A stretch of DNA of 64,000 bases, from contig OZ234493.1 of NCBI GenBank assembly GCA_965153455.1, positions 17,474,213 to 17,538,212 of the forward strand. Reading direction: 5' to 3'. Positions 1-55,208 of the stretch are shown piece by piece. Origin of the DNA: Sphagnum compactum (Eukaryota). Within the stretch, counting starts at the first letter, position 1, and each line of letters begins with the position of its first letter. Position numbers and translations under genes: made by a program. Under the pieces are notes generated by a model, which was not told where the DNA came from, searched no databases, and worked only from the letters and a program-made list of their open reading frames with translations.

Positions 1-25
1 GTCAATGGATGTTGCTGTGTGACAG

Positions 26-1538
26 GGTCAACTTCCTGGGCTCGGAGCCCTTGCGTTGTGGGAAGAGCCCAGACCATTGGCGACGAAAGACGGGGATGCA
101 TTGCAAGCGGTCGATGGATCGGATGGCATTGTGGTGGTGGAGGAGCCTTGCGATTGGTTAGCATTTCTAAAATCTCGTAAAAGCTGAATGGATAATTGTG
201 TTTTTGATTTAACACTCGCTCGAAATCGTAATCCATCTCACTAGATTTTGTGGATTCCTCGCAGGAATATCAAACTGCATTCTACGAAATATTGGGGTCC
301 CGGTGAGAGTGCTTGGATCATCCGGCATTTTCGCAGCGAAGGGCACAGTGTCCCTGGCTCCATGCGGCAAGTGATAGGGCTCGGACACGCAATTTCCGAC
401 GAAGGGCAAAACAAGGGAACATATCCCAATCTCCGTGATTTCAAAGAACTGAGTGAAGATTGCATGCTCATTTACCACGGAGAAATGGTGGCAATCCTTT
501 TGCATGGGTTTGTTCCCTCTACGGAAGCGTCGGAGCATCTTCAAACATTGGGATATTTGTTTCAACACGGCGGCACTATCTCCCGGTCCTGTTCTCGGGA
601 GTCTAGAATGGCGCTGTTCGGGCATAGATTTTGCCGTTTCGATCTTACCGTGGATAGGTCTGCACCCTTCCACTGCCCAAACTCAGTTTATGCATGCTAT
701 AATTTAAATAACTTTTTTTCTCCTGATGCCTGGTTTTCTTTTCTTTAGGTACCAGCACCCTACAAAAAATGCTAAAAATAAGAAAACTTACTCGCAAGAA
801 GAATTGGAACGCTTCGCAGATGCTTGGGCCCCCGAGTTTGTGGAGAAGAATCTACGTCCCCAGTTGACATCCTGGCTCCAAGAATTGGACGGCTTCTTCC
901 CGGAACAATTGCCCTTTGGCACTTCTCGGATCGGGAGGACTTGTTTTACGGCGATGACAGTCACGGAGAACTACCATTCGACGCCGCACACGGACAGGGA
1001 CCTGTCTAATTCTATGATTTCCTGGTTCTTAGAAAGTAAGTGTGTTTTGCTGCATGTGTCTGTTTCAAAGATTTCGAGCTTTTTGGAAAAACAAAAAAAA
1101 GGGAATTTAATTTGTCGAACTCCATCTTGACACCCCACAATTGTGAACATGTTTGGAGCTTGAACAGGAGAAGCAGAATCCGGAGGGGAATTTGCATTTC
1201 CTGCGCACGGAATGTTTTTCAAACCCCGACATGGGATAATCATCCTATTCCGATCTGGGTGGCTTCAGCATTGCATAATGCCCGTCTTAGACCGAAGACG
1301 ACAATTGGGCTGTGCGTTGTACCTTAGGAAGCAGACGTTGACCCATTATGTGGCTCGACAAGCTGATTTGTCTCGAATCAACGAGGCTTTGAACGAATCA
1401 ATGAGGAAAAAAAGTTGCATGAGAAGGCGAGGGAAAAGAACAATGGGCCCGCTTAAAGGTGCTTTGCGTTTGACTTATCGCGGTGGCACCATAGATGTTA
1501 ATGACGAGGCAGGATCCAGTGATGAATCCTTCGAATAG
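26..1538 (+). CDS. Tet/JBP-like 2OG-Fe(II) dioxygenase-domain gene, 5'-incomplete; exons 26-156, 265-657, 749-1035, 1168-1538
   Basis: GT-AG introns 157-264, 658-748 and 1036-1167 join four GC-richer exons into one open frame (393 codons plus TAG) with consistent phases. Motifs: RMALFGHRF; FTAMTVTENYHSTPHTDRD (HxD at 987-995); GGEFAFP; IILFRSGWLQHC (distal His 1269-1271); QLGCALY. The first exon's boundaries are the least certain. Confidence 0.72.
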
Positions 1539-4500
1539 CTAGGTGTTTATTCGCTAAATAGCTTGGCCTTTTATAATAATTGCAAAATTTTCTAGCAAGT
1601 AAAACAATTTTGGGAATCTTTTACAGGATTTTAGCAAGAAAAAAAGATGATAATTAACCAAAATGAACTTGGATTAATTATTAGTTTTCTCTTTTAGCAT
1701 CCAGAAATTTAACCAAGTGAAAATTCTGCATGGCATATATCAAGGGCTTATAAAGGGCATAAAACCCCTATTGTTATTCAATTAATTTTGAGGAATGGAA
1801 AATTAGCTTTTAAAAATGAAAAAAACATGTATTAATTATTTCAACTACTCAATTTTTGCAAATATGTATGCACTAAATAATAGTGTTAGGGTTCTTGCTC
1901 AATTTGGCTGGGTAGAACCATCAGTTCTAAATAGTAAAAACTATATCAAAACTGGGTTTGATTTCTAGAACCAAAATCAGCCATTAGGTTTGGGTTTTAA
2001 ACTAGATTTGGTTTTAGACTTTCACTTTAAAAGTGGATATGGTTTCATTGTGGAAGGCCTTAACCTAATCACCCCTAGTAGTTGGGAACTATGTCTCAAG
2101 AAGCTAGTCCGCTCTCGCAATGTTGCCACCATCACCAACAACAAATGCCCTGAAGTGCAACATTTCGCAATATTGGTGTCTAGCTCTTTAACTAAAGATT
2201 GATATGATTTATTCCTCTTGAAGTTGAAACTGCCTAAATTTTCTTCTGCATGCATGTTGTCTAATTATGTCAACTATGTAAAATGCAATGAGTGTACACA
2301 ACTCTTTGTTGTGCTTGAAAACTAAAATGAGCATTCCTAAGTTGCAGTTATTCTATTTGTTTTGTTGAAGTTTTGTGAAACTTACAAGTTACAGTTGTGA
2401 ACATTGTATTATAATTTATGCGATTGTGGATTTGTTGAGGGTGAAGGGGGTGGTCATTTCAACTTTGAATAACGGCAAGAATATGAACCTAAAAAGGTTA
2501 TAGATGGGATTTGATTTGAGAATTTGCAAGATGACTACAAATGGGATTTTGTTTTGGATTTCCAAAATGAAACTCAAGGTGGATTCCTTTACCTTTAACC
2601 CCACAATCCACTTTGCAAATTGTTGGGTGATTTGGTTTGTTGTACAAGTTCAAGATCAAATGGAGCTTTGCAATAAATCCACAATGTTTTTTTATGTTTT
2701 TTTCGTTTCTATTTTTCTAAGTTTTATTCTTCTCCTTATCAAAACCTTTCCTGAATTTTTATTTTTTTTTTTTCACTTGCTTTTATCTTAAATATGTCTT
2801 TCTTTTACTTATAAAATTTTAACTTACTCTCTCTTCAAGTCTATAGCACTATTGTTTGCAAAACTTTTTTTCTTGGTGTCTTGATTGCAATCTTGAATTT
2901 TATTCTAGATTTTCCATGATTGCCACGTCTTTTATTATTTTATAATATTTTGATTCCTCCATGAATCTTAATACCACCATGCCATTGTGCATTGTATTAG
3001 ATTTTAGTATGTCCCCAAAGTCAGATAACTCTTCCAGCGAGCCAAATCACCTATGGCTGGAGCTTGGTTTCAATTCCTAGAGTTCATAATCAGTATAGTA
3101 AAAACAACCAAGTCCATAGATATCTAAAACAGTAAATTGATTTTGTGATTTACAATCCCTTAAATTTGTTCATAAAGGTGATATATTCATATGCGATTTC
3201 ATAGCCATAACAAATGTATGTTAAAGTTAGTTGTACATTATGTATTGTGATATCACCTTATCACTCCAAGGGGATGAATTATGGTCCTTTTGTGGACTAT
3301 TACAAGGTGACCACAGTCAAATCCATATGAAATGGACTACTAACTACAATACAAATTGCAATAAACATCTTGCCTTTGTTATTGATGATGAGAAGATGTG
3401 GGTTCACCGAGGTGCCCAAATAGAAGGCCTAAATTGTTGGTCACACAAACAACGTTTGGAACTATGGTATAATTTGTGAAAGTTGATGCAAAGGTAAATT
3501 AATGACCCCCTTTGAATTCCTCCTCCTATTTTACCTCTATCTTCTAAGGTCTGGTGATGAACATGAAGGTTTTTTCTCAAACCTGAATTGTGTAGCTTAC
3601 AAATTTGGACATTGATGATCTTCCACCATTTTTCTTGTTAATTGTTTTGTTTGGTGTTGGATGGTTAAGACTACATAGTAAGGCATAATAATAAAATTGG
3701 ATGCACAATTTTCTAAGCAAGTAATCGCAGATGTTTTAAGGTTTGTTTATCCCCAATATTCGCTGCAAGTAGACAATGAGGCAACAGTTCTTTGACATTT
3801 GGAAATCTTGATAATTATTGGAAACACTTCTCTATCTTCACCACATGTGCTTTCTGTTGCTGAAATGTTTTGTCACTTATGCCACAACCCAAATTTGGGG
3901 GAGAAGGAAAAAAGGGCTGGTTGGCATTCTTACGGTGAACAAAGTTTGCAAGTCTTGTCATATGCAACCCACCACTGCCTGTAAGGTGAATTGCAGGTTC
4001 ATAGACTCAACACTTTGACCAAACTGGTTGTAAATTGGAATTTGCCTATTGTAGATGCCCAAGGGGGCCATTCATCGAATGCCCAAATAACAGTTTCTAA
4101 GAATGAAAGAGGACAAAATGGATTTCAAGTGGATTTTTGCACTTAATGTATTAGGTGGGATTGGATGTGAGTAAGCAGCCAAAGGGCGAAGGAAAAGCTT
4201 GTGCAGTCCTAGAACCTTGTGCGACAGCATAAGGATCATGGGTCATGGCATCCTTGGTCAAATAAATTTGCTGTTGTTTACACATATGAAGCTCCCACGA
4301 TACCATGATAATTGTAATCAAACAAAAAGTGTATGTATGTACATCAATTCCCAAACAGTTAACACCAAAGGTATAGCAACTAGTGCGCTTAAATTTCACC
4401 CAAAAAATCTAGACCTTGTAAATGTTGCCAAACCTCCCCATACATAATCATATGGGGAACAAAAATAACCATAGATTTCTTATATTGAGGATTCTGTAGA

Positions 4501-35198: not shown

Positions 35199-38100
35199 AT
35201 GGCCGACTTCCGATGCCCCGAATGTAACATTTGTTTCGCCGCTTCTCATCAACGCGATGGACATCGCCAATTGGTGCATCAAACGACCTGTAAGATCCGT
35301 ACCGCCACCGGTCGAATTACTATCAATCGATCGATTGACGGTAAATATCCTTGCCCCATGGAGGGCTGCACGAGCACATTTGAGCGCAGTGATACGCTCT
35401 AGCACCATTTCAAAGGGCGACATGGGGAGCAAAGCAACTCCGCCCTAAATCAACATCTTGACGACGATGCGCAAATTAGGGCAATGTCCCTGGGCATGTT
35501 AATCGAGCCGCCCATCGAGCAAACACCGGAACTGCTCCGTGATGTCGGCCTTACGGTTCTCAACATCGCGGATGGCATTCATCTCCTGTTGTGCAGGGTT
35601 TGCAACGTATGTCTGGAGCCCGAGGCTCGCCGTGTGCATAACCACTTGTTAGGGCACAACAATTAGAGAGCTCCCAAACGACATCGCAACGGTGGTCCCC
35701 GTCGCGTGACTGGGATCCCACCTGTTACGGATTTCGCATCGTCGCTCGATGAGATCGAGTTCACCCAGTTGCAAGACCCTCGCCTGGAAAGGTATACCAC
35801 ATCTCCACGGCAGGAGCTTTTGCCGGTGGTCCCAGGGATAAGGGTTGTGAACGGATATCGATGCGAGGCGGATGGATGTGCGTACTATTCCGCCACCAAG
35901 AAGATTATGGGCAATCATCGTCGCGCCAACCATTTCTTCTTACCAATTCATGCAAACGGTCAACCGTGTCAAGTGCAGCGCCTTTTCAGAAAGGTCGGGT
36001 ACACCGGGTATTTTGGTGTGGACCACCAGAATATGGAGCTTGAAGGCGATCCAGCAGGGCTCCACTTGAAGGAGCAGGTGCACGTTTCGTTACAGGCCCA
36101 CCAATGTTCCCTGGGAAACGTGGCACCAAATCCATCCATTCGTGAGTTGAGTCCATGGCTCAGAGTGTCTCGTTGGCACGAACTAGCCGTTAACCACATC
36201 ATTCCGGCAGGTACGCCGCCGGATCGCATCAAGCGAGCCAGCATGCTCCCGAACCCGATCGACGGGGAATCCAATTTGGATCGTTTGCCCTCGATGGTCC
36301 GAAGGTATTTGGAGGCTTTGCAGGCCATGATCGGTCGTGTGCCGTATCATCTCAGGCGGTTGGTCGTTTCAGTGGAAGATTCCCCCCTGGCCACGGTGGG
36401 GTTCAACCAGCTTTGGGTGCCATCCACAATAAGCAAATATTGTATGTTGATGACCAAGCTGCTCACTACGATGGTCCGATCCAGGGACAGCGCCCCGGTG
36501 GATGATGAGCCATTCGTCAACGTTCTTGGCGATTTGCATCCAGATCTCGGAGATGCGTTGGAGAATCTCATTTTTCGCATCCGAAGTCGACGAGATGCGG
36601 AGGGGGACGACGAAGATCTCGTTCCGATCCACGCGGTGTTATTGAACATTTGCAGACCGCCGACGTGTCCGATCGTTGGGCACGGGCCGCAAACCGGTTG
36701 TCCGATAATCAGGTTCCTGATCGTGAACAACTTGAAGTCGGACCCTTTGTCGACCAACCTCGCTTTCGAACACGTTCGACACGTGACAGGTCCCGTAGCC
36801 ATTCTCCAGTATTGGTGGAGATGCACGATCCTCATGCAGCTGGTGCGTCCGATGTGGCAGCCCGATCACCCCCCAATCCCGTGGTGCGAAGCCGAGGAGT
36901 GGCTCCCTTGCGTTCGTGATAGCGCCAAAGATACACCGTTCAACAGACTGCGGGAGACCATGCGCCTCGCATGGAGGGTGTTGGGCGACGGCCCTGACAT
37001 TCCAAGACTTGTTCGGATCGGTCCCATGGCGTGCACAATCGATGGTCAAGCCGTCACCATCGACACGTTACGAAACCTGGTCGGCAAGCTACTCCGCGAG
37101 GCAAATCAAGTGATGAGCAACCAATTGTTGCTAGGACTCCAGATAGCTTGGATCAACCGGGTGATAGCTGAGGGCAACGTTGAGGACAGGGCGAACGAAG
37201 ACGAAGTCGGGTATTCTTTCTTGTCGGATGCCCGTAATGAATTTCATCGCCGTGGACAAGATCTCACCATCCACCTTTTCAGCGAACGGCGTACCCGAGG
37301 TCTCTTCGTCAAAGGCACAGACGGCGATGGATCCATCGTATGGAATCAAAATGCCTTGGCATTGTGGGCAAAGGCGGCGGATCGTATGCACGCGTTGTTA
37401 TTTTTACTCATGCATTTCACTGCCGGTGGTCCTCCTCGCGGGGAGGAGTACAGGAGCTATCTCCTTCGCAACACGGAGCATTCCGATAGGACATTTTATT
37501 GGTCGGCCGGCACCATCATGACCTTCCAGAGGTACCACAAGGGCGCCAACGCCGGGCGGCCGGTCAAATTGATACCCCGTTTCCTACCTCCGGAACTCAA
37601 TTTGCTCTTCATCGAATACATGTTGCTGGTGAGGCCGGTGCAGTCCTTCATCGCGGGCCTGCGTGGAAACATCAACGCCGCTTGACAATACATGAACCTT
37701 TGGGCCATTCAACGAGATGCCGCCATGGACGGCGAAGATGTTTCCCGTTTGGTGGCCACGGCGTTCCTCGAGCACGCAAATCTCGATTTGGGGATCGCGG
37801 ATTATCGTCATCTGGCCGCTTACTTCGGGGGTGCCATCAAGCAAAGTTATTGCACGGAATTTCCCATCGATGAGACATCCGGGCACTCTTCGACCACGAC
37901 CGCACGACAGTATGCCAATTGTTCCAACGATCACAGATTCATGGACAGTCAACAAATGTACACGTACAGATTGGCCGCCGAAGCGTGGCATCGCTTGTTG
38001 CAATTTGATCGGAGCCCGGTCCGAAACCCTTCATCCGGTGGTTCGACCGTCGAGATTCCGACGAGCGTCGACCTACCCGACGGCCATTGTCCGTCGCAAT

Positions 38101-38923
38101 CCCAGTGCGCGTCTCTCCTCGCATCCCTCATGTGTTCGGTCACACAAACCATCCCTCAACCAGCCGTGCCGCCACCGCCCGAGGATCAAACGCACGAAGT
38201 TCGTTCTCTGCAAGCTCTTCGTCGACTGGGCCACGGACAGTGGACGTGCAAGGAACAAGGCTTGGCTGTGACGTTGGTCCTCGAAAACAGGCTCGATTTG
38301 TTGGTGGTCATGCCCACCGGACATGGTAAATCGGCTGTGTTCATGATCCCGCCGATGGTCACCGCTCGCACCGTCATCGTGGTGGTGCCTCTGACGATCC
38401 TCGTCCGCGGACACGAAGCGGACGCGACCCGAACCGGCTTACGACACGCGACCTACGGCACGGACACGATCAGATTTGACGATCCTCCGTCCATCTTGTT
38501 CGTATCGGTGGAACGTGCAGCCACTTCGAGGTTCGTGGAAATCGCACATACGTTGAACCATTTGCAAAAGCTTCATTGCATCGTCGTGGATGAAGCGCAT
38601 TTACTATTGTCGGATTTCAGACCCGTCATGAAGCGCCTGTTGCCGTTGTGGGCCGTGGGATGCCAGCTCGTCGCGTTGACGGCCTCCCTGTCCCCTTCTC
38701 AAGAGACGGACCTCAAGATCGTGATGTCCACGAGATTCGCCGTCGTCCGGATGTCCACGGTGCGCCCCCTGATCGAGTACGTCGTCGATGAAGTGGCCGA
38801 TGTGGACGAGGAAATCGTTCGACAACTCATCGAATGGGATTGCAACGTTTCTTCCGAGACGGATAGGGCCATGGTGTATTGCTTGACGCGATAGTCGGTC
38901 GAGCAAGTGGTGTCCATGGCCAA
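35199..38923 (+). pseudogene. C2H2 zinc fingers + DUF3505/OrsD-like region + tyrosine-recombinase-like domain + RecQ-type DEAH helicase (fungal telomere-linked-helicase architecture); four nonsense codons, truncated by an LTR
   Basis: One frame runs from ATG 35199 through ORFs 35484, 35706 and 37692, with stops at 35400, 35664, 37683 and 38892. Zinc fingers: CPEC..HRQLVH, CPMEGC..HFKGRH, LCRVC..HLLGH, CEADGC..HRRANH. DUF3505-like: VQRLF...YFGV and SPWLRVSRW. Recombinase-like: GGPPRGEE, YHK, DYRH, GHSSTTTARQY. Helicase: Walker A MPTGHGKS (38310-38333), VVVPL, VDEAH (DEAH 38589-38600), DFRP, LTAS, MVYCLTR. Motifs V-VI are missing because the LTR begins at 38924. Confidence 0.85.
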
Positions 38924-39959
38924 TGACGCACTCCCAAGTTCCTAGTGGACCCACTTGAGGGTCCAAGTATGTGGCAATGCGGAAGGAGTTGGAACTTGGA
39001 GCACGCTCCCGACTTCTAGCACTAGAGGGGGGGGTGAGAGGGGTGTGCTAGAAGTCCCGGGATAGACTAGGAAGAATTGACAAGCTTATTCACTCACACG
39101 GGCCTGCACACAACCCACACAAAGTGGTTAGTGCATAGTTGGAGCACCTTTGGTGCTAGGACGAGCCACGGGCAACACGGACACACAAGACTCACCACGG
39201 CCCGGACTTGGGGGAAGCCACCACCTTCCCCCTTATAGTATACTCTGCAGCTCTCCACGGAGGCTACATCCAAATGGCTATTTTTCCCGGGACTCCCGCG
39301 TGGGAGTCCCGAAATCGCGCCAAATGCGACTCCCGCGACTTTGGAGCCCCATAACTTTGCGAGCAGACCTCGGATCGCGATGCGGTCTGAAGCAAAGTTG
39401 TAGCTCTCGTCGAGAGCTTTCCAACGATATGTCGCACGTCCTCTGCAGCCTAGTATTTCGGGTCGATTCCCGACTTTTAGTGGTCGGGAGTCAAAACTGG
39501 CAGACTCCCGGGAATTCGACTCCCGATCCTTCTTTTGGCCATAACTTGTGTTTCAGATGTCCAAATGAGCTATGCGAGCCCATTTTAGATATCTACGCTT
39601 CAAGAGCTTTCCAATGATATAAAGAACGCCACAAGACATTGAGGTTTGACACCTGCAATTGCTCTCTGAAGTTTCGGGAGTCCACCGGGACTCCATCTCC
39701 CCAAAGTGGGAGTTGCCTTGGGAGTGTGAGTGTTCACTCCCTCACACTCCCTCACACTTTCTTACACTCCCGGGAGTGTGATGTGACTCCCGGGCTTTCT
39801 CTTGCCTTGGCTCCCGGGCTTCCTCTTGGTTTAACTCCCGAGCAACCTCTTGGTTTAACTCCCGAGCAACCTCTTGGTTTAACTCCCGGGTTTCCTCTTG
39901 ACCCGCAACCTTATAACCCCTTTGCCTTTGGTCCCGGGCCCAAAGCTAGGGTTGCGACA
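38924..39959 (-). repeat. 3' LTR of element 1 (1036 bp)
   Basis: tgacgcactccc...gggttgcgaca, adjacent to the polypurine tract (ctctccccc on +). Confidence 0.95.
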
Positions 39960-40746
39960 CTCTCCCCCACTAGAAGGAGAGGTCAATGTCCTCATTGACA
40001 CTTAGAATTTCTTTCAACAATTATAATTGCTTTCTTTTGGATCCTTGGCCATCAAATGCCGACTCCTTGCGGCCGGACCTTGCCTCAAGCTAACTTAGGC
40101 GTCCCCAAGCTTCCAACACTCTCTTGGCAAGTCCAAGGGTGTCTCAATAGAAACCCTCCATCGCTTCGTCAAAAGACCTAACTAGCCTAATTGACGAAGC
40201 CCTCATTTGGGAGGCCATTCTTTCAACCTTCCCTTCATGAGGAACTCAAGCCAAGCCTAATCTTGACCTAAGCTACTTGACATGACTCCTTTCGCAATCT
40301 TGCGCCTTGATCACAACAATCAAGCCTTTCCTAAAGGTATGCTTATCAAGGTACGAGAAGCGACGTTTAGGCTTTGCAAAAGCCTAAGTCCCAAGATACG
40401 CGATTATAGTACACGAACGGGGTCATGACTTCCCGCGTTGGCCGCCACTACCAACCAACCCCTTGGGATGCACTTTGGGCATGTGCACGTCCCCGCAAGC
40501 TCACCTTGCTTGCCTCCTCTTTTCGGACCAAGATTTCTCCTAGCCCCCAAGTAGGAGTCCGATTTTGATTTGGGCTTACGCAAGAAAGTTCCATTTGTCC
40601 ATGCCACTTGACAACGCCCCCTTTTCTAACATATTATTATGTTTGTGATGCAATCTCTCGGAAGTCTTTAGCCTTTATTTCACTTACAACTTGATTTGGT
40701 ACATTTGTGTAACTTTCCGCCCCTTAAAAGAAAGGTGATGTCCTCA

Positions 40747-43700
40747 TCACGCTCTATGTTTCCTTTGCCTTTTAGCCGGTCTATTGTGGAATTCTTCTAT
40801 GGCTTCTTGGGCATGTTCCATGTCGGACTCATTCACCCAAGATGCCTCTATTGGATGGTATCCTTTCCACTTGACCAAGTACTCCCGCTCTTGCCCCTTT
40901 AGTTGCCTTGACTTGAGCACGGCCTCCACTTCAAATTCCGGTTCATTATGAACCAAATCCGGAGGGGGCCTTGAGTTGTGCTCTCGATCGGGCCTTGAGG
41001 CATCACGGACGACCGGCTTCAAAAGCGAAACATGAAATATGGGGTGAACCTTGAGATTTTCCGGTAGTTCTAACTTGTAAGTGTCGGGAAATTTCTTTTC
41101 CAACACTTTGAATGGACCCGCATATGGGCCCAAGAACTTATGGCTCAATCCTTCGGGCAACCGGAAGTTCTTGATGTTCAACCATACTTCATCCCCTTCT
41201 TCAAAATTCACCTCTCGACGGGACTTGTCCGCAAAACTCTTGTACCTTTTATGCGCCTTCTCAAGATTGGCCTTGGCCATCTCCCACAAGCGTCGCCTTT
41301 CTTCATCAAGTTGTGTGACCATGGGCACTTCCTCACTTGCATCACTTGGGGGTTGCCCAACCCAAGTTGTGGGCACAATTGGTGACTTGCCCGTCACCAT
41401 TTGAAATGGGGTGGCCCCCGTTGCCGAATGCTCCGAATTGTTGTAACAAAATTCGGCCAACTCCAAATGGTCCACCCAATCTTGTTGATCCGCTGCCACA
41501 TAATTCCTTAGGAATTGTTGGATCACCAAGTTCACCCTCTCGGTTTGTCCATCCGTTTGAGGCCGAAAGGAAGTGCTCATCTTGAGCTCGGACCCCATGC
41601 GCTTCCACAAGGCTCTCCAAAACTTGCTTGTGAACTTGGGGTCTCGGTCCGACACAATGTCCTTTGGGAGGCCATGATGCTTGAACACGTGGGTGAAGAA
41701 CAACCTTCCCGTCTCTTGGGCCGTGGCACTATCCTTGGTAGGAATGAAATGTGCCATCTTGCTAAACCGATCCACCACCACCATGATCGCATCAAACCCC
41801 TTTGATGGTGGCAAACTCACCATGAAATCCATGGAGACACTTTCCCACGGCCCTTCCGGAATGGGTAACGGTCGCAACAATCCCGCTTGCTTTTTATTGA
41901 GTGCCCGGTTTTGTTGGCAAGTCAAGCAAGTCTTCACGTATTCCTCCGCATCCTCCTTCAAGTTGGGCCAATAATAGGACTTCTTGAGGAATGTGGTGGT
42001 GCGCTTTGCACCACCGTGACCCGCAAGGGGCCCATCATGGCATTCCTTCAAAAGCACATCTCTTAGCCTCCCTTTTGGAACATAGAGCCGACTTTGCTTA
42101 TACCACAAAAGTCCATCTCGCAAGTGGAAGTGGGACTTGATCCCCTTTTGAATGTCTTGCTTCCTTTCCTTGGCAAATTCATCCCGACGGCTCCCAAGTC
42201 GAACATCCTTTTGGAACTTTGTTTCTCCCACATACACCACTTTGAGTTGGTGTTTCCGACTCAATGCGTCCGGCACCACATTTTCCTTCCCGGGCTTATG
42301 CCGAATGTCCACATTGAACAAAGCCAATGTGTCTTGCCATCTCACTTGTTTTGATGACAACTTTGGTTGAGTTGCGAAGTACTTCAAGGTGACATTGTCG
42401 GTCCACACCACCACATCTTTGGAACCTATGTAATGGCCCCAAGTCTTGAGACAATGTATCACGGCCCACATTTCCTTTTCATGGGTTGGCCACCTTCGCT
42501 CCGTCTCATTCAACTTCTTGCTTTCGAAGGCCACCGGCCTTCCATCTTGCACTAGGACTCCTCCTATGGCAAAGTCGGACGCATCGGAATGGATCTCAAA
42601 GTCCTTGTCAAAATCGGGCAACTTCAACACGGGCGCCTTCACCAAAATGCCTTTCAAAGTCTCAAAGGCCTCATTGCATGCCTCCTCCCATTCATAAGTC
42701 CCGGATGACTTCTTCAAAAGGTTTGTCAAAGGTGTGGCTATCTTTGCAAAGTTCTTGATGAACTTGCGATAATAAGAAGCCAATCCCAAAAAGGACCTTA
42801 AGGCGGGAACGGACTTAGGTGGTTCCCAATCCAAGATTGCTTTCACCTTGTGGTCATCCATTTTCAAACCTTCTTGGGTGATCCTATGCCCAAGGAAGTC
42901 CACCTCCGACACTCCAAACTCACACTTCTCGAACTTGGCATACAACTTGTTTTCTTTTAACCTTTGGAACACCTTACGAAGGTGCTCCGCATGCTCCTCC
43001 AAGGAGCTACTATAGATCAAAATGTCGTCTATGTAGACGACCACAAAATCATCAAGCCACTCTCGGAAAATGTCATTCATGAGGGTGCAAAATGTGGCGG
43101 GTGCATTGGTGAGCCCAAATGGCATCACCAAGAATTCATATGAACCATACCTTGTGCGGCAAGCGGTTTTCTCTTCATCCCCTTGTGCAATTCGAATTTG
43201 GTAGTATCCCGAACGTAGGTCAATCCTACTAAACACTTTGGCTCCCGAAAGCCGATCAAACAAGTCATCAATCCGAGGCAATGGGTACCGATTCTTCACC
43301 GTCACCTTGTTGAGGGCTCTATAATCTACGCACATCCTCAAAGTCCCATCCTTCTTGTGAGCAAAAAGGACGGGCGCCCCATATGGTGACTTGCTAGGCT
43401 TGATGTATCCCTTTGCAAGGAGTTCTTCGAGTTGAACCTTGAGCTCTTTTAACTCTTCATGACTCATTCGATACGGGGCCTTAGCGGGAGGTGCCACTCC
43501 CGGGACCACCTCAATGGCATGGTCCACTTGTCTTCTCGGGGGCAACTCGTCGGGCAACTCTTCGGGCATCACATCCGGGAATTCCTCTAACACTTGCTTG
43601 ATGCACTTGTGGGGGCTCACCACCTTGGTGGCCTCCTTTGGTTCAAACTCATCCAACACCCGCATCACACATAACATGCCGTAGCCTCCCCCACATTCTT

Positions 43701-45237
43701 TTTCCAAGTTCTTTCCCAACATCAAGTGGATGGTGGTCTCACCCACACTAGGCACTTCATGTGCCTTCACCCGCACAATCCCACTCTTGGATGGGATCCT
43801 AACTAGCCTATTGTGCCCTTCTATGAGCACATTGTTTTGTGTGATGAATTCCATTCCCAAAATGCAATCCATGCCCCCTAAGGTGGAGACTAACAAATCC
43901 ACCTTGCCTCTCCAATTCCCCATTTGGAGCGGCACATCTCTTGCTTGCAACTTGGTGGGATGGGGAATCCCATCCGCAAAATGCACCTCTATGGGTGCCT
44001 TGAGCTCCTCCAACCGGAGCTCCATTCTTTGGGCACTTTCTTGGGTTATGAAGTTGTGGGAAGCGCCTGTGTCCAAAAGACATAAAACTTCCCGCTTAGA
44101 AACTTTCCCTTTTAAGAAAATAAGGCGGTTACATTCACCTTCGGCTAGGTGGGAGGTGAGGGCAATTACCTTAGAAGCCCCACTCCCCGGTTTGGGTTTG
44201 GGGCAATCTTTGGAGTAATGGCCCACTTCATTACAATTGAAACATGTTCCCTTAGGTTTGCCACTAACATCTCCTTTGGGTTGGCTCCCTTTGAAAGGAG
44301 CCCCTTTCTTCACAAAATTTCCCTTGGGTTTGAAACCCGAGCCTTGGAATTGTTTAGGTTTTTCCCCTTTTGAGGTGTCTTGGCCTCGGTTCCATTCCCC
44401 TTCATGGCGTGCCTTCTTATGAGGGAACTTGTTATCCCTTTTGAATCCGGACTTCTCACCACGCCCAACATCCGAAAAGCCTTCCACTTTCATGATGGCT
44501 TCGGTTAGTGAGGTGGGCCAATTCTCCTCAAGCTTGCGTTTGGCCCAAGTGGGAAGTCCCATCACAAAGTGGCACACCCGGTCTAACTCATGCATATGTC
44601 GAATCTCAAGCATGAGTTCGGAGTAAGCCCTCACATATTGGCGCAAGTTGTCATTGCTCCCATTCTCAAGGTCACGGAGTTTGCATCTTGAAATGTAGTC
44701 GGAATTCTTGGGAATGAATTCCAACTCAATACGCTCCTTGAAGAATTCCCATGTGTAGCCATGGGTCTTCCCTTCTTCTTGCCTCACCGTCCTCCACCAT
44801 GTGGAGGCATAGCCCTTCAAATAGGATTGGGCAAGTTCCACGGCCGAATGCCGACCAACCTTGGCGGCATGAAGGTAGTCCTCCATTTCCGCAAGCCAAG
44901 CATCCACAACCTTCCGATCCCGGGCCCCATCAAAGTTCCCGGGCCTAGCGGGCTTGAACCCCACACTTTTGGATGAGCCTCCCTTGAGGGCCTCAACCAA
45001 TTCACTAAAATCGGGCCTATTCATTTTGAGTAAGACCTCCAATTGTTCCGGGGTGAAGAGCACCGCATTAGGTTGCTCCTCTTCATTTTCATGCTCCTCA
45101 AGGCTAACACGGTCTTCTTCATCTTCGGAATGGTTTTGTTCCTCCTCCCTCATAGCTTCGGGAGGAACATCTAGGTCTTGGGTGGGTTCTTCCACCACGG
45201 GCTCTTGGACTAGCTTGCGGGTCTTCCTTGGTGCCAT
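40747..45237 (-). CDS. Gag-Pol polyprotein (gag, CCHC knuckle, aspartic protease, RT, RNase H, integrase, chromodomain), 1496 aa
   Basis: [37 protein letters not shown]...CLTC, SMDF...SDRD...TE, GPF, FEVEAVL...YLVKWKGY...SW. Confidence 0.97.
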
Positions 45238-45272
45238 CGAAACTCCCCAATAAGTGGATCGAGCTCACCGGC

Positions 45273-45284
45273 GCTCTGATACCA
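45273..45284 (-). other. Primer-binding site (tRNA-iMet) of element 1
   Basis: The reverse complement is TGGTATCAGAGC, 2 nt from the LTR end. Confidence 0.92.
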
Positions 45285-45286
45285 AG

Positions 45287-46274
45287 TGACGCACTCCCAA
45301 GTTCCTAGTGGACCCACTTGAGGGTCCAAGTATGTGGCAATGCGGAAGGAGTTGGAACTTGGAGCACGCTCCCGACTTCTAGCACTAGAGGGGGGGGTGA
45401 GAGGGGTGTGCTAGAAGTCCCGGGATAGACTAGGAAGAATTGACAAGCTTATTCACTCACACGGGCCTGCACACAACCCACACAAAGTGGTTAGTGCATA
45501 GTTGGAGCACCTTTGGTGCTAGGACGAGCCACGGGCAACACGGACACACAAGACTCACCACGGCCCGGACTTGGGGGAAGCCACCACCTTCCCCCTTATA
45601 GTATACTCTGCAGCTCTCCACGGAGGCTACATCCAAATGGCTATTTTTCCCGGGACTCCCGCGTGGGAGTCCCGAAATCGCGCCAAATGCGACTCCCGCG
45701 ACTTTGGAGCCCCATAACTTTGCGATCAGACCTCGGATCGCGATGCGGTCTGAAGCAAAGTTGTAGCTCTCGTCGAGAGCTTTCCAACGATATGTCGCAC
45801 GTCCTCTGCAGCCTAGTATTTCGGGTCGATTCCCGACTTTTAGTGGTCGGGAGTCAAAACTGGCAGACTCCTGGGAATTCGACTCCCGATCCTTCTTTTG
45901 GCCATAACTTGTGTTTCAGATGTCCAAATGAGCTATGCGAGCCCATTTTAGATATCTACGCTTCAAGAGCTTTCCAATGATATAAAGAACGCCACAAGAC
46001 ATTGAGGTCTGACACCTGCAATTGCTCTCTGAAGTTTCGAGAGTCCACCGGGACTCCATCTCCCCAAAGTGGGAGTTGCCTTGGGAGTGTGAGTGTTCAC
46101 TCCCTCACACTCCCTCACACTTTCTTACACTCCCGGGAGTGTGATGTGACTCCCGGGCTTGCTCTTGGTTTAACTCCCGAGCAACCTCTTGGTTTAACTC
46201 CCGGGTTTCCTCTTGACCCGCAACCTTATAACCCCTTTGCCTTTGGTCCCGGGCCCAAAGCTAGGGTTGCGACA
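45287..46274 (-). repeat. 5' LTR of element 1 (988 bp, two 24-bp units shorter than its 3' LTR)
   Basis: Same termini as the 3' LTR. It lacks 48 bp in the internal ctcttggtttaactcccg array and differs by at least four further substitutions. Confidence 0.95.
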
Positions 46275-47082
46275 CTGGCCAAAACGTTGGCCAGGCAGTT
46301 TCATACCTTTCTCCCGAGTATAATAAGGCCAAATCAGACTGGTTTTGTCGAGGGAAGGAGCATCCTCGATAATACCTTCCTGGCACAAGAAGCTCAGGAC
46401 TGGGCTGAAGAGAGCAACCAGGACTTCGAGAAGGCCTTTGATAGGATCGAATGGAGCTTTTTGTTCGAAGCCCTGGCAAAGCTCGGGTTCTGCCCACAAT
46501 GGATCTGGTGGGTGAGTTCGCTGTACAAGTCAGCTTCGTCGACCATCAAACTCAATGGAGTCGAGGGGAGCACCTTCCCGCTCGCCAGGTCAGTGAGGCA
46601 GGGGTGCCCGCTCTCACCCTACCTTTTCATCTTGGCAACGGACGTCCTAGGGCACATGCTAGACGATCATCGCTTCGGGGTGGAAGGTCTAGCCCTCCCG
46701 GGAGGAGGGAAAATCACAGACCAGACCTTCGCGGACGACACCGCGCTCTACCTGCAAGGAACACGCGACAACATGGAAAGGACGCAAAAAGTCCTGGACA
46801 TATGTTGTAGAGTGTCGGGAGCAAAAATAAACTGGCACAAAACGGCCGCGATCTGGGCCAGTAAAAGAAACAAAGAGTGGGAATGGGGCTAGGAGGTGGG
46901 ACTCCAGTGGGTCCCGGAAGGCAAAGGGGTGAGATATTTAGGAATCCAGGTGGGATTCCATCTCCCCTCTAAAGCCAATTTCGACAAGATGCTATCCGCC
47001 CTTAAAAGCAAGCTAATCAATTGGAGTACATGCCGCCTCTCACTAGCGGGGAGGATCCTGGTGGCGAACCAGGTCCTCCTCG

Positions 47083-49633: not shown

Positions 49634-50670
49634 TGTCGCAACCCTAGCTTTGGGCCCGGGACCAAAGGCAAAGGGGTTATAAGGTTGCGGGTCAAGAGGA
49701 AACCCGGGAGTTAAACCAAAAGGTTGCTCGGGAGTTAAACCAAGAGGTTGCTCGGGAGTTAAACCAAGAGGAAGCCCGGGAGCCAAGGCAAGAGAAAGCC
49801 CGGGAGTCACATCACACTCCCGGGAGTGTAAGAAAGTGTGAGGGAGTGTGAGGGAGTGAACACTCACACTCCCAAGGCAACTCCCACTTTGGGGAGATGG
49901 AGTCCCGGTGGACTCCCAAAACTTCAGAGAGCAATTGCAGGTGTCAAACCTCAATGTCTTGTGGCGTTCTTTATATCATTGGAAAGCTCTTGAAGCGTAG
50001 ATATCTAAAATGGGCTCGCATAGCTCATTTGGACATCTGAAACACAAGTTATGGCCAAAAGAAGGATCGGGAGTCGAATTCCCGGGAGTCTGCCAGTTTT
50101 GACTCCCGACCACTAAAAGTCGGGAATCGACCCGAAATACTAGGCTGCAGAGGACGTGCCACATATCGTTGGAAAGCTCTCGACGAGAGCTACAACTTTG
50201 CTTCAGACCGCATCGCGATCCGAGGTCTGCTCGCAAAGTTATGGGGCTCCAAAGTCGCGGGAGTCGCATTTGGCGCGATTTCGGGACTCCCACGCGGGAG
50301 TCCCGGGAAAAATAGCCATTTGGATGTAGCCTCCGTGGAGAGCTGCAGAGTATACTATAAGGGGGAAGGTGGTGGCTTCCCCCAAGTCCGGGCCGTGGTG
50401 AGTCTTGTGTGTCTGTGTTGCCCGTGGCTCGTCCTAGCACCAAAGGTGCTCCAACTATGCACTAACCACTTTGTGTGGGTTGTGTGCAGGCCCGTGTGAG
50501 TGAATAAGCTTGTCAATTCTTCCTAGTCTATCCCGGGACTTCTAGCACACCCCTCTCACCCCCCCTCTAGTGCTAGAAGTCGGGAGCGTGCTCCAAGTTC
50601 CAACTCCTTCCGCATTGCCACATACTTGGACCCTCAAGTGGGTCCACTAGGAACTTGGGAGTGCGTCACT

Positions 50671-50682
50671 TGGTATCAGAGC
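50671..50682 (+). other. Primer-binding site (tRNA-iMet) of element 2
   Basis: TGGTATCAGAGC two bases after the 5' LTR end. Confidence 0.92.
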
Positions 50683-50717
50683 TCCGGTGAGCTCGATCCA
50701 CTTATTGGGGAGTTCCG

Positions 50718-53700
50718 ATGGCACCAAGGAAGACCCGCAAGCTAGTCCAAGAGCCCGTGGTGGAAGAACCCACCCAAGACCTAGATGTTCCTCCCGAAGC
50801 TATGAGGGAGGAGGAACAAAACCATTCCGAAGATGAAGAAGACCGTGTTAGCCTTGAGGAGCATGAAAATGAAGAGGAGCAACCTAATGCGGTGCTCTTC
50901 ACCCCGGAACAATTGGAGGTCTTACTCAAAATGAATAGGCCCGATTTTAGTGAATTGGTTGAGGCCCTCAAGGGAGGTTCATCCAAAAGTGTGGGGTTCA
51001 AGCCCGCTAGGCCCGGGAACTTTGATGGGGCCCGGGATCGGAAAGTTGTGGATGCTTGGCTTGCGGAAATGGAGGACTACCTTCATGCCGCCAAGGTTGG
51101 TCGGCATTCGGCCGTGGAACTTGCCCAATCCTATTTGAAGGGCTATGCCTCCACATGGTGGAGGACGGTGAGGCAAGAAGAAGGGAAGACCCATGGCTAC
51201 ACATGGGAATTCTTCAAGGAGCGTATTGAGTTGGAATTCATTCCCAAGAATTCCGACTACATTTCAAGATGCAAACTCCGTGACCTTGAGAATGGGAGCA
51301 ATGACAACTTGCGCCAATATGTGAGGGCTTACTCCGAACTCATGCTTGAGATTCGACATATGCATGAGTTAGACCGGGTGTGCCACTTTGTGATGGGACT
51401 TCCCACTTGGGCCAAACGCAAGCTTGAGGAGAATTGGCCCACCTCACTAACCGAAGCCATCATGAAAGTGGAAGGCTTTTCGGATGTTGGGCGTGGTGAG
51501 AAGTCCGGATTCAAAAGGGATAACAAGTTCCCTCATAAGAAGGCACGCCATGAAGGGGAATGGAACCGAGGCCAAGACACCTCAAAAGGGGAAAAACCTA
51601 AACAATTCCAAGGCTCGGGTTTCAAACCCAAGGGAAATTTTGTGAAGAAAGGGGCTCCTTTCAAAGGGAGCCAACCCAAAGGAGATGTTAGTGGCAAACC
51701 TAAGGGAACATGTTTCAATTGTAATGAAGTGGGCCATTACTCCAAAGATTGCCCCAAACCCAAACCGGGGAGTGGGGCTTCTAAGGTAATTGCCCTCACC
51801 TCCCACCTAGCCGAAGGTGAATGTAACCGCCTTATTTTCTTAAAAGGGAAAGTTTCTAAGCGGGAAGTTTTATGTCTTTTGGACACAGGCGCTTCCCACA
51901 ACTTCATAACCCAAGAAAGTGCCCAAAGAATGGAGCTCCGGTTGGAGGAGCTCAAGGCACCCATAGAGGTGCATTTTGCGGATGGGATTCCCCATCCCAC
52001 CAAGTTGCAAGCAAGAGATGTGCCGCTCCAAATGGGGAATTGGAGAGGCAAGGTGGATTTGTTAGTCTCCACCTTAGGGGGCATGGATTGCATTTTGGGA
52101 ATGGAATTCATCACACAAAACAATGTGCTCATAGAAGGGCACAATAGGCTAGTTAGGATCCCATCCAAGAGTGGGATTGTGCGGGTGAAGGCACATGAAG
52201 TGCCTAGTGTGGGTGAGACCACCATCCACTTGATGTTGGGAAAGAACTTGGAAAAAGAATGTGGGGGAGGCTACGGCATGTTATGTGTGATGCGGGTGTT
52301 GGATGAGTTTGAACCAAAGGAGGCCACCAAGGTGGTGAGCCCCCACAAGTGCATCAAGCAAGTGTTAGAGGAATTCCCGGATGTGATGCCCGAAGAGTTG
52401 CCCGACGAGTTGCCCCCGAGAAGACAAGTGGACCATGCCATTGAGGTGGTCCCGGGAGTGGCACCTCCCGCTAAGGCCCCGTATCGAATGAGTCATGAAG
52501 AGTTAAAAGAGCTCAAGGTTCAACTCGAAGAACTCCTTGCAAAGGGATACATCAAGCCTAGCAAGTCACCATATGGGGCGCCCGTCCTTTTTGCTCACAA
52601 GAAGGATGGGACTTTGAGGATGTGCGTAGATTATAGAGCCCTCAACAAGGTGACGGTGAAGAATCGGTACCCATTGCCTCGGATTGATGACTTGTTTGAT
52701 CGGCTTTCGGGAGCCAAAGTGTTTAGTAGGATTGACCTACGTTCGGGATACTACCAAATTCGAATTGCACAAGGGGATGAAGAGAAAACCGCTTGCCGCA
52801 CAAGGTATGGTTCATATGAATTCTTGGTGATGCCATTTGGGCTCACCAATGCACCCGCCACATTTTGCACCCTCATGAATGACATTTTCCGAGAGTGGCT
52901 TGATGATTTTGTGGTCGTCTACATAGACGACATTTTGATCTATAGTAGCTCCTTGGAGGAGCATGCGGAGCACCTTCGTAAGGTGTTCCAAAGGTTAAAA
53001 GAAAACAAGTTGTATGCCAAGTTCGAGAAGTGTGAGTTTGGAGTGTCGGAGGTGGACTTCCTTGGGCATAGGATCACCCAAGAAGGTTTGAAAATGGATG
53101 ACCACAAGGTGAAAGCAATCTTGGATTGGGAACCACCTAAGTCCGTTCCCGCCTTAAGGTCCTTTTTGGGATTGGCTTCTTATTATCGCAAGTTCATCAA
53201 GAACTTTGCAAAGATAGCCACACCTTTGACAAACCTTTTGAAGAAGTCATCCGGGACTTATGAATGGGAGGAGGCATGCAATGAGGCCTTTGAGACTTTG
53301 AAAGGCATTTTGGTGAAGGCGCCCGTGTTGAAGTTGCCCGATTTTGACAAGGACTTTGAGATCCATTCCGATGCGTCCGACTTTGCCATAGGAGGAGTCC
53401 TAGTGCAAGATGGAAGGCCGGTGGCCTTCGAAAGCAAGAAGTTGAATGAGACGGAGCGAAGGTGGCCAACCCATGAAAAGGAAATGTGGGCCGTGATACA
53501 TTGTCTCAAGACTTGGGGCCATTACATAGGTTCCAAAGATGTGGTGGTGTGGACCGACAATGTCACCTTGAAGTACTTCGCAACTCAACCAAAGTTGTCA
53601 TCAAAACAAGTGAGATGGCAAGACACATTGGCTTTGTTCAATGTGGACATTCGGCATAAGCCCGGGAAGGAAAATGTGGTGCCGGACGCATTGAGTCGGA

Positions 53701-55208
53701 AACACCAACTCAAAGTGGTGTATGTGGGAGAAACAAAGTTCCAAAAGGATGTTCGACTTGGGAGCCGTCGGGATGAATTTGCCAAGGAAAGGAAGCAAGA
53801 CATTCAAAAGGGGATCAAGTCCCACTTCCACTTGCGAGATGGACTTTTGTGGTATAAGCAAAGTCGGCTCTATGTTCCAAAAGGGAGGCTAAGAGATGTG
53901 CTTTTGAAGGAATGCCATGATGGGCCCCTTGCGGGTCACGGTGGTGCAAAGCGCACCACCACATTCCTCAAGAAGTCCTATTATTGGCCCAACTTGAAGG
54001 AGGATGCGGAGGAATACGTGAAGACTTGCTTGACTTGCCAACAAAACCGGGCACTCAATAAAAAGCAAGCGGGATTGTTGCGACCGTTACCCATTCCGGA
54101 AGGGCCGTGGGAAAGTGTCTCCATGGATTTCATGGTGAGTTTGCCACCATCAAAGGGGTTTGATGCGATCATGGTGGTGGTGGATCGGTTTAGCAAGATG
54201 GCACATTTCATTCCTACCAAGGATAGTGCCACGGCCCAAGAGACGGGAAGGTTGTTCTTCACCCACGTGTTCAAGCATCATGGCCTCCCAAAGGACATTG
54301 TGTCGGACCGAGACCCCAAGTTCACAAGCAAGTTTTGGAGAGCCTTGTGGAAGCGCATGGGGTCCGAGCTCAAGATGAGCACTTCCTTTCGGCCTCAAAC
54401 GGATGGACAAACCGAGAGGGTGAACTTGGTGATCCAACAATTCCTAAGGAATTATGTGGCAGCGGATCAACAAGATTGGGTGGACCATTTGGAGTTGGCC
54501 GAATTTTGTTACAACAATTCGGAGCATTCGGCAACGGGGGCCACCCCATTTCAAATGGTGACGGGCAAGTCACCAATTGTGCCCACAACTTGGGTTGGGC
54601 AACCCCCAAGTGATGCAAGTGAGGAAGTGCCCATGGTCACACAACTTGATGAAGAAAGGCGACGCTTGTGGGAGATGGCCAAGGCCAATCTTGAGAAGGC
54701 GCATAAAAGGTACAAGAGTTTTGCGGACAAGTCCCGTCGAGAGGTGAATTTTGAAGAAGGGGATGAAGTATGGTTGAACATCAAGAACTTCCGGTTGCCC
54801 GAAGGATTGAGCCATAAGTTCTTGGGCCCATATGCGGGTCCATTCAAAGTGTTGGAAAAGAAATTTCCCGACACTTACAAGTTAGAACTACCGGAAAATC
54901 TCAAGGTTCACCCCATATTTCATGTTTCGCTTTTGAAGCCGGTCGTCCGTGATGCCTCAAGGCCCGATCGAGAGCACAACTCAAGGCCCCCTCCGGATTT
55001 GGTTCATAATGAACCGGAATTTGAAGTGGAGGCCGTGCTCAAGTCAAGGCAACTAAAGGGGCAAGAGCGGGAGTACTTGGTCAAGTGGAAAGGATACCAT
55101 CCAATAGAGGCATCTTGGGTGAATGAGTCCGACATGGAACATGCCCAAGAAGCCATAGAAGAATTCCACAATAGACCGGCTAAAAGGCAAAGGAAACATA
55201 GAGCGTGA
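50718..55208 (+). CDS. Gag-Pol polyprotein with chromodomain, 1496 aa
   Basis: Same motifs as 40747-45237; the two translations appear identical. Confidence 0.97.

Follow-up and report, generated by a model that had tools for sequence, protein, structure and literature searches.

A peat-moss gene family encoding a putative dioxygenase with likely affinity to the TET/JBP branch and to CMD1

We analyzed a stretch of 64,000 nucleotides from the peat moss Sphagnum compactum (assembly GCA_965153455.1, contig OZ234493.1, positions 17,474,213 to 17,538,212 of the forward strand; hereafter the window), which opens on most of a spliced gene. The reading that we favor, and consider fairly probable, is that this nuclear peat-moss gene has five exons and encodes a divergent Fe(II) dioxygenase of the TET/JBP branch, with CMD1 of Chlamydomonas reinhardtii as its closest characterized relative and with 5-methylcytosine (5mC) in DNA as its putative substrate. 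The evidence comes from the structure of the gene, its sequence motifs, the ranking of its homologues, the decay of its copies, the ratio of nonsynonymous to synonymous differences (pN/pS) and one spliced RNA junction.

Joining the exons at 26-156, 265-657, 749-1035 and 1168-1538 gives 1182 nt and 393 codons with a single terminal stop, as found both by script and by direct reading; the original prediction, made from the sequence alone, of four in-frame exons without stops was thereby confirmed. All three introns of the window have GT..AG borders, and the codons split at the three junctions are TG/G (W), AG/G (R) and A/GA (R). The same junctions are used in gene models of other Sphagnum species, the first two in P0004 and P0002 and the last in P0001, P0015, P0032 and P0051 (P labels denote database protein models, of which P0001 is from S. 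fallax, P0002 from S. tenellum and P0051 from S. balticum, P0004 covering exons 2-4; L labels denote gene copies on metagenome contigs). An in-frame TGA and an acceptor AG at the left edge of the window indicate that the window begins inside an intron. The upstream first exon, seen in the S. tenellum model P0002 and at loci L001 and L003, comprises 77 codons, holds the ATG and encodes a C-x2-C...H-x5-H finger. At L001, L003 and L038 it ends in ...CCG CAG/gt and is followed by the same intron end as that of the window. Positions 26-1538 hold exons 2-5; the whole gene has five exons and ~470 codons, and its ATG exon is off the window. The earlier description of the gene as apparently intact holds for exons 2-5, which are open; the ATG exon lies outside the window, so only these four could be judged. 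The motif series HxD...GGxFxFP...H and the upstream M.LFG.R motif that had been proposed are both present, in the form of HTD, GGEFAFP, the distal His and MALFGHRF.

Transcription was examined in polyA RNA from 'organism A'; ~12% of the run was read, and 17 reads fell on the stretch. Six reads with six different start points crossed the junction 156/265, skipping 108 nt between GT and AG in agreement with gene models P0002 and P0004. At the junction of exons 1 and 2, three reads carried first-exon letters before position 24, and none of the 17 reads fell in introns 1 and 2. A second RNA joint, from 561 to 756 with 10 foreign letters between (three reads), came from a divergent copy. Contigs of the metatranscriptome or unlabelled runs X1, X2 and X15 ran through the introns and show presence, not splicing. 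All 17 reads were only 90-95% alike to the window and hence derive from a related copy, and none lay over the end of exon 4 or over exon 5, hence none on the last two junctions, a point against the favored reading. The splicing proposed for the three window junctions was thus borne out by RNA at the first of them, through a related copy, and drew no reads at the other two.

The named relatives of the gene are exclusively from Sphagnum fallax, S. tenellum, S. compactum, S. jensenii and S. balticum, and the surmise of a plant-like genome proved correct, the host being a land plant. In a word-indexed search, the exon with the HxD motif retrieved 9 proteins among 23 candidates (60-90% identity; the named ones from S. 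fallax, S. tenellum, S. compactum and S. jensenii), and the largest exon, exon 3, retrieved 5 among 67. Both of these searches were limited to longer proteins, and all their matches had at most 381 residues and were fragmentary or read through introns. A phmmer search with the last exon against 1.84 billion representative proteins yielded only 26 matches at E ≤0.001. Twenty-five of these were 45-198 residues long; the exception, of 1482 residues, matched on its low-complexity tail only. All phmmer matches that bear a name belong to Sphagnum, and this extends to P0033, the most divergent of them. Correctly spliced models never exceeded 296 residues, and metagenome-called proteins read through introns; the databases held no full-length model of the Sphagnum gene, and no locus had an open frame across two exons. 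The models being fragmentary, the gene family is unannotated or fragmentary in public Sphagnum annotations. Elsewhere, a tblastn search of 50,697 phage records with P0001 gave eight weak matches at E ≥0.1, to generic 2-oxoglutarate/Fe(II) (2OG-Fe(II)) oxygenases; PHROGs returned generic '2OG-Fe(II) oxygenase' families only, and Rfam had no match in the window. Within the searches made, these matches point to a multi-copy family found so far only in Sphagnum.

Most comparisons with proteins of solved structure in the PDB placed CMD1 ahead of all others. The query P0051, a model in which portions of exons 3 and 4 (of the latter its end) are joined to exon 5, matched CMD1 (7cy4) at E 2.3e-5, the next match having E 1.7; the alignment spans 87 residues, from before the HxD motif through the distal His to the strand with the Tyr and Arg residues. 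For P0001, CMD1 was the sole match up to E 10 (E 0.0025). For P0015 it was the first of five (E 0.019), with prolyl hydroxylases next at 0.065-0.18, and for profile A1 it came first at E 0.0073, followed by a match at E 0.7. CMD1 was the top or sole solved match for three of the four single-sequence queries and for one of the two profiles, while TET2 and NgTet1 were absent from every PDB search up to E 10. In Pfam, P0051 matched Tet_JBP (PF12851) at E 1.3e-5 and 24.9 bits and PF13640 second, at E 0.006 and 17.9 bits. Among eight relatives, Tet_JBP was matched by four (E 4.6e-4 to 6.7e-3, 16-20 bits), PF20515 (Tet-like 2OG-Fe(II) oxygenase) by two and PF13640 by one. A TET-type family, Tet_JBP or PF20515, was on top in four of the five relatives with any oxygenase match (P0001, P0005, P0032 and P0051); the fifth, P0015, topped with PF13640. 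Over the 22 members of profile A1, the tally was 6 for Tet_JBP, 4 each for PF13640 and PF13759, and 2 for PF20515. In the ESM Atlas, 23 of the 30 nearest clusters were Tet_JBP, with scores up to 0.94. Best matches to AlkB, prolyl hydroxylases or another non-TET family were not what emerged: AlkB was never among the matches and the prolyl-hydroxylase type came second. Judged by these matches, the predicted protein belongs to the 2OG-Fe(II)-oxygenase superfamily and very probably to its TET/JBP branch nearest CMD1, at scores below the curated thresholds for formal membership.

A number of results weigh against this assignment. No score reaches any curated cut-off: the gathering cut-off of Tet_JBP is 34.9 bits, compared with a best score of 24.9, and that of both PF20515 and PF13640 is 27 bits, the weak matches to PF20515 (E 0.003, 0.014 and 0.044) all lying below it. 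The window's own last exon matched Tet_JBP at 11 bits (E 0.25), behind WelO5 (E 0.091), and the three other exon pieces of the window matched no Pfam family. P0015 scored higher with PF13640 (22.7 bits) than with Tet_JBP (19.9 bits). Profile A3, from which key columns were dropped in the build, gave no significant match, CMD1 standing eighth of nine rows at E 0.67. P0004 (exons 2-4) had no match in the PDB, and exon 3 alone gave no Pfam family and no Atlas signal (scores ≤0.78). For the double-stranded beta-helix with TET-type insertions that marks this branch, AlphaFold2 models had a mean pLDDT of 57.3 (P0001 with A1) and 48.2 (P0051 with A3), too poor for use, and a Foldseek search of the PDB with the P0051 model returned nothing at E ≤0.001, the best value of 2.5 being at chance level. 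The proposal of a Tet/JBP-like dioxygenase, and of Tet_JBP or Tet-like profiles as its best matches, therefore held for the ranking of matches and fell short of the curated cut-offs, the fold models being too poor to speak for or against it.

Part of this evidence also fits an enzyme from a different clade of 2OG-Fe(II) oxygenases, such as one like the prolyl 4-hydroxylases, that acts on a protein or a small molecule and not on DNA; its CMD1 match would reflect superfamily motifs only. PF13640 ranks above Tet_JBP for P0015 and second for P0051, prolyl hydroxylases follow CMD1 in the PDB at E 0.065-0.7, and the GGExxFP block is common to prolyl hydroxylases in the alignments. In the Atlas, the two best-ranked clusters consist of unnamed proteins from basidiomycetes that carry an automatic prolyl 4-hydroxylase label, and the PHROGs families are generic. 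However, the prolyl-hydroxylase alignments are limited to the GGE..FP stretch, whereas that with CMD1 extends over its 87 residues; CMD1 is 4-5 orders of magnitude ahead of any other solved protein for P0051; and 23 of the 30 Atlas neighbors are Tet_JBP. We consider an oxygenase of another clade improbable.

The assignment to the TET/JBP branch can be followed to individual residues. These were mapped by HMMER alignments to chain 7cy4_A (offset 374 from CMD1 numbering), with roles as given in sections of PMC7854593. CMD1 His345, Asp347 and His397 align with the H/D/H of the Sphagnum family, at a spacing of 50 residues, compared with 52 in CMD1. Thr337, Ile356, Trp358 and Phe371 are identical in the family, Phe416 is replaced by Tyr, Arg418 is retained, and the partner of Thr399 is Thr in all 26 other loci. 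According to the same sections of PMC7854593, ascorbate is contacted in CMD1 by Thr337, Thr399, His249, Arg244, Ser335 and Ser414, and the flipped 5mC is held by Phe416, Arg418, Asp350 and Arg244/Phe245. Trp358 fills the site of the 2-oxoglutarate C5-carboxylate, one of two reasons given there for CMD1 not using 2-oxoglutarate, and Arg410 is the counterpart of the Arg that serves this carboxylate in TET2 (Arg1896) and NgTet1 (Arg289). The correspondence is less clean at several of these positions. Ser414 aligns with Ala. Asp350 stands opposite a gap, an Asp being located one residue earlier in the Sphagnum family. Arg410 is opposite a conserved Gln in the A1 alignment or a two-residue gap in the P0051 alignment; some copies carry basic residues just before that Gln position. 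The partner of Ser335 is Thr in the window copy and Ala in the consensus. In the search of the PDB with P0004, His249 and Arg244 found no alignable partner; the Arg-Phe pair of exon 3 precedes the HxD motif by 90 residues, compared with 101 for Arg244-Phe245, a likeness of motif and spacing only, not an alignment.

These residues suggest how the enzyme might work. The first exon would contribute a C2H2-like finger, and Fe(II) would be held by the His-x-Asp (987-995) and the distal His (1269-1271). The Tyr and Arg that are the partners of CMD1 Phe416 and Arg418 would receive a 5-methylpyrimidine in flipped-out position, in all likelihood 5mC in DNA, the Tyr by stacking and the Arg by hydrogen bonding, and the enzyme would oxidize or otherwise modify its 5-methyl group. 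Retention of the Trp358 partner, together with the apparent lack of an Arg in register with the 2-oxoglutarate Arg, suggests that the co-substrate may be ascorbate, which CMD1 uses, and not 2-oxoglutarate; a co-substrate of ascorbate type, or one that is non-canonical in another way, is possible and may reasonably be proposed. The fold, the action on DNA, the choice of co-substrate and any part in demethylation are predicted from sequence. A bolder version, in which at least one active enzyme of CMD1 type persists in peat mosses and uses ascorbate, not 2-oxoglutarate, to convert 5mC in DNA into a glyceryl-type or other oxidized derivative, strikes us as unlikely.

The state of the gene copies bears on whether such an enzyme is still made. 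Metagenome contigs contained 45 loci with 57-94% identity in the largest exon and the same exon-intron layout in all; 40 extractable segments, the window's own included, represented ~30 sequence versions at 98.5% identity. The pN/pS of the window copy versus six relatives ranged from 0.33 to 0.51 (Fisher p 0.045 to 1e-12), which indicates that protein-level selection acted during much of the family's history. None of the 14 loci that cover all four window exons was free of stops and frameshifts, the defect of L003 being a 1-nt insertion in the last exon only. Five partial contigs (L001, L002, L006, L022 and L025) were stop-free as far as covered, L006 with a 138-nt insertion. Collectively, the family evolved under purifying selection and most of its copies are now broken. 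The window copy departs from the ≥85% consensus at four positions. One of these is the partner of CMD1 Thr399, where it has Ile (1275-1277) in place of Thr in 26 of 26 other loci; position 1276 reads C, giving the Thr codon, in all contigs placed from runs X1, X2 and X15. A Thr399Ala mutant of CMD1 is inactive, as stated in sections of PMC7854593. The unique Ile makes the activity of the window copy itself doubtful, its open frame notwithstanding.

The family could accordingly be a relic, once active and now decaying, with the window copy an open-frame pseudogene devoid of present function. Besides the absence of undamaged copies among the 14 and the unusual Ile, this is what one might read from annotated Sphagnum models that are all fragments of at most 296 residues and from the S. 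fallax model P0001, in which Tyr replaces the distal His. Exon and intron identity versus the closest copies, L001 and L002 (95-96% identical to the window copy), is about equal (0.960 versus 0.975 and 0.954 versus 0.953), and in the ~12% of the polyA run there was no RNA read at ≥95% likeness. Yet 393 codons remain open; pN/pS is 0.43-0.51 even versus L001 and L002 (p 0.04-0.045), which are themselves open as far as covered; the iron ligands are preserved, as are most residues of the pocket; and a related copy is spliced and polyadenylated. Weighing these points, we regard decay without present function as a possible, though not the likelier, state of the family, and continue to favor a gene that encodes a TET/JBP-branch enzyme.

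A transposon origin is a natural idea here, since algal and fungal TET/JBP genes ride in transposons: passages of a preprint (bioRxiv 10.1101/2022.06.16.496473) assign CMD1 to DNA-1_cRei, a DNA transposon, and further TET/JBP genes of Chlamydomonas to Helitrons, and passages of PMC12730594 describe fungal TET/JBP genes in several DNA transposon lineages. The Sphagnum gene could likewise be cargo of a mobile element that it serves by removing or masking 5mC, and thus by counteracting silencing. The ~30 sequence versions in moss-associated contigs, most of them decayed, would fit this, as would the sharp ends of the unit that the paralogous copies have in common. This unit of ~2.4 kb consists of the gene and ~530 bp upstream of the ATG, ends within ~16-45 bp after the stop codon, and is found at L008, L009-L011 and L013 as well as at the window locus and the loci orthologous to it, L001 and L003-L005. 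A 128-bp repeat inside the unit, upstream of the gene, and a short palindrome after the stop, found in L009, L010 and L013, could also be taken as parts of an element. But the unit contains only this gene, and no terminal inverted repeats or target-site duplication were seen by eye at its ends. No transposase-like open reading frame (ORF) of ≥170 codons was present at 16 loci; Pfam searches with five neighboring ORFs of the loci gave an aldolase, a G-patch protein, one weak PDS5 match and, for two, nothing. At L003 and L010, the 3.4-9.4 kb upstream of the gene contained no ORF for a KDZ/CxC transposase, which the original prediction had proposed to look for upstream, nor for any other transposase; between 1130 and 10585 the window lacks ORFs of ≥130 codons, so no transposase ORF lies within 9 kb downstream. 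Intron positions are kept in all copies, which is consistent with any duplication at the DNA level. The proposal of a transposon-borne gene found no support in the DNA examined, where the unit holds this gene only and the neighboring ORFs searched are ordinary genes or have no Pfam match. The many decayed copies still make some kind of mobility possible; that the gene is cargo in the service of an element we hold to be rather unlikely.

Three further observations concern the surroundings of this unit. The 128-bp repeat forms a long tandem array in L009-L011 (L010 6820-9371) and is single in L001 and L003-L005; in L010 the array adjoins the first exon directly upstream, as a variable promoter-proximal repeat. 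The palindrome just after the stop, with 6-bp arms and a 12-base loop, is located at ~5529-5560 in L009, ~11121-11150 in L010 and ~2397-2430 in L013, is degraded in L003 and L004 and gives way to other sequence in the window; it may resemble a terminator or mark the end of an element. Window positions 1555-2802 (~1.25 kb) are absent from the orthologous L003-L005, which have 33 bp there instead and resume at window position 2803.

Table 1. Coordinates, in window positions, of the exons and of selected residues of the Sphagnum compactum gene.
Feature	Position	Strand	Remarks
3' end of intron 1	1..25	+	acceptor AG 24-25, in-frame TGA 20-22; read directly
Exon 2 (exon 1 of the original prediction), 131 nt	26..156	+	closes on 2 bases of a Trp codon
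Exon 3, 393 nt	265..657	+	holds the nearly invariant RMALFGHRFC block; Arg-Phe 626-631
MALFGHRF	608-631	+	exon 3
Exon 4, 287 nt	749..1035	+	VTEN; His-Thr-Asp 987-995; Trp 1023-1025
Predicted iron-ligand His / Asp	987-989 / 993-995	+	exon 4
Trp, partner of CMD1 Trp358	1023-1025	+	exon 4; HMMER alignments to 7cy4
Exon 5 (last)	1168..1538	+	stop TAG 1536-1538
GGEFAFP	1182-1202	+	exon 5
Distal His	1269-1271	+	exon 5
Ile (Thr in all other copies)	1275-1277	+	exon 5
Tyr and Arg, partners of CMD1 Phe416 / Arg418	1320-1322 / 1326-1328	+	exon 5
Last bases common to paralogous copies	1539..1554	+	shared sequence breaks at 1554

The remainder of the window contains several other coding features. At 35667-38894 (+) lies a GC-rich (~55%) open frame of 672 + 402 codons. 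Its product combines a zinc-finger domain of OrsD type (PF12013, E 5.8e-7) with the N-terminal lobe of a helicase of the RecQ family (Pfam DEAD, E 1.8e-16; RECQ5, RecQ and BLM in the PDB, E 6e-10 to 2e-7). The frame is broken off at ~38.9 kb by a long terminal repeat (LTR) retrotransposon and has the look of a foreign or mobile gene, not of an ordinary moss gene. Two Ty3/gypsy-type elements of 6369 nt, 100% identical and in inverted orientation, occupy 39028-45396 and 50559-56927, each with an open gag-pol frame of 1505 codons, at 40747-45264 (-) and 50691-55208 (+), respectively; the pair reflects either a very recent insertion or a duplication in the assembly. A third, degraded copy (86-91%) is found at ~56.9-59.7 kb. 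Between the two identical copies, a 303-codon open frame at 45981-46892 (+) encodes a reverse-transcriptase domain (RVT_1, E 1.4e-25) and is probably a fragment of a non-LTR element.

To our knowledge, land plants are generally described as being without TET homologues, which leaves the oxidized methylcytosines detected in plants with no known enzymatic source. The literature searched did not mention TET/JBP genes from Sphagnum or any other bryophyte, though older surveys may hold an earlier mention. A transcribed Sphagnum family of TET/JBP type, long under selection, would be an exception to this picture. It would provide a concrete gene for expression and assay and a reason to look for 5-hydroxymethylcytosine (5hmC) or the glyceryl-type derivative (5gmC) in bryophyte DNA. 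A CMD1-like pocket would also bear on how far ascorbate-dependent DNA modification has spread beyond Chlamydomonas. Were the enzyme active and of CMD1 type, it would represent the first TET-family pathway of DNA modification in a land plant, beside the route through the ROS1/DME glycosylases.

Among known systems, the fungal transposon-associated TET/JBP genes (KDZ and others, PF20515) resemble the Sphagnum family in their population biology, both being lineage-specific, multi-copy and partly decayed; weak PF20515 matches and the unnamed basidiomycete oxygenases among the nearest Atlas clusters point the same way. The two differ in that no transposase stands beside any Sphagnum copy examined and that the PF20515 scores stay under 27 bits. 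With prolyl 4-hydroxylase-type enzymes (PF13640), the family shares the superfamily, the HxD motif and the GGE..FP block, and these enzymes come second in both Pfam and the PDB; their alignments are short, with at best 22.7 bits versus a cut-off of 27, and leave the region before the HxD motif and the Tyr/Arg strand uncovered. The 2-oxoglutarate-dependent TET2 and NgTet1 have, by way of the CMD1 alignment and the roles given in sections of PMC7854593, the same predicted iron triad and base-stacking aromatic residue. Unlike them, the Sphagnum family has no aligned Arg for the C5-carboxylate and carries the Trp of CMD1.

The closest comparison is with CMD1 itself (Chlamydomonas reinhardtii, PDB 7cy4-7cy8). 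Identity is ~30% and extends over ~87 residues only; for the C2H2-like finger at the N terminus of the predicted Sphagnum protein, and for the region encoded by exon 3, CMD1 offers no detectable counterpart. Within the aligned part, the two differ in the change of Ser414 to Ala, in an Asp350 that lacks a clean partner, in Arg410-Trp411, placed either opposite Gln or within a gap of two residues, and in the Ile of the window copy at the Thr399 position. Against these differences, CMD1 is the best or sole solved match, and the HxD...H triad is set at nearly equal spacing in both proteins. The identical Thr337, Ile356, Trp358 and Phe371, the Tyr and Arg at the positions of Phe416 and Arg418, and the consensus Thr at Thr399 make a pocket of the CMD1 type possible in the peat-moss family.

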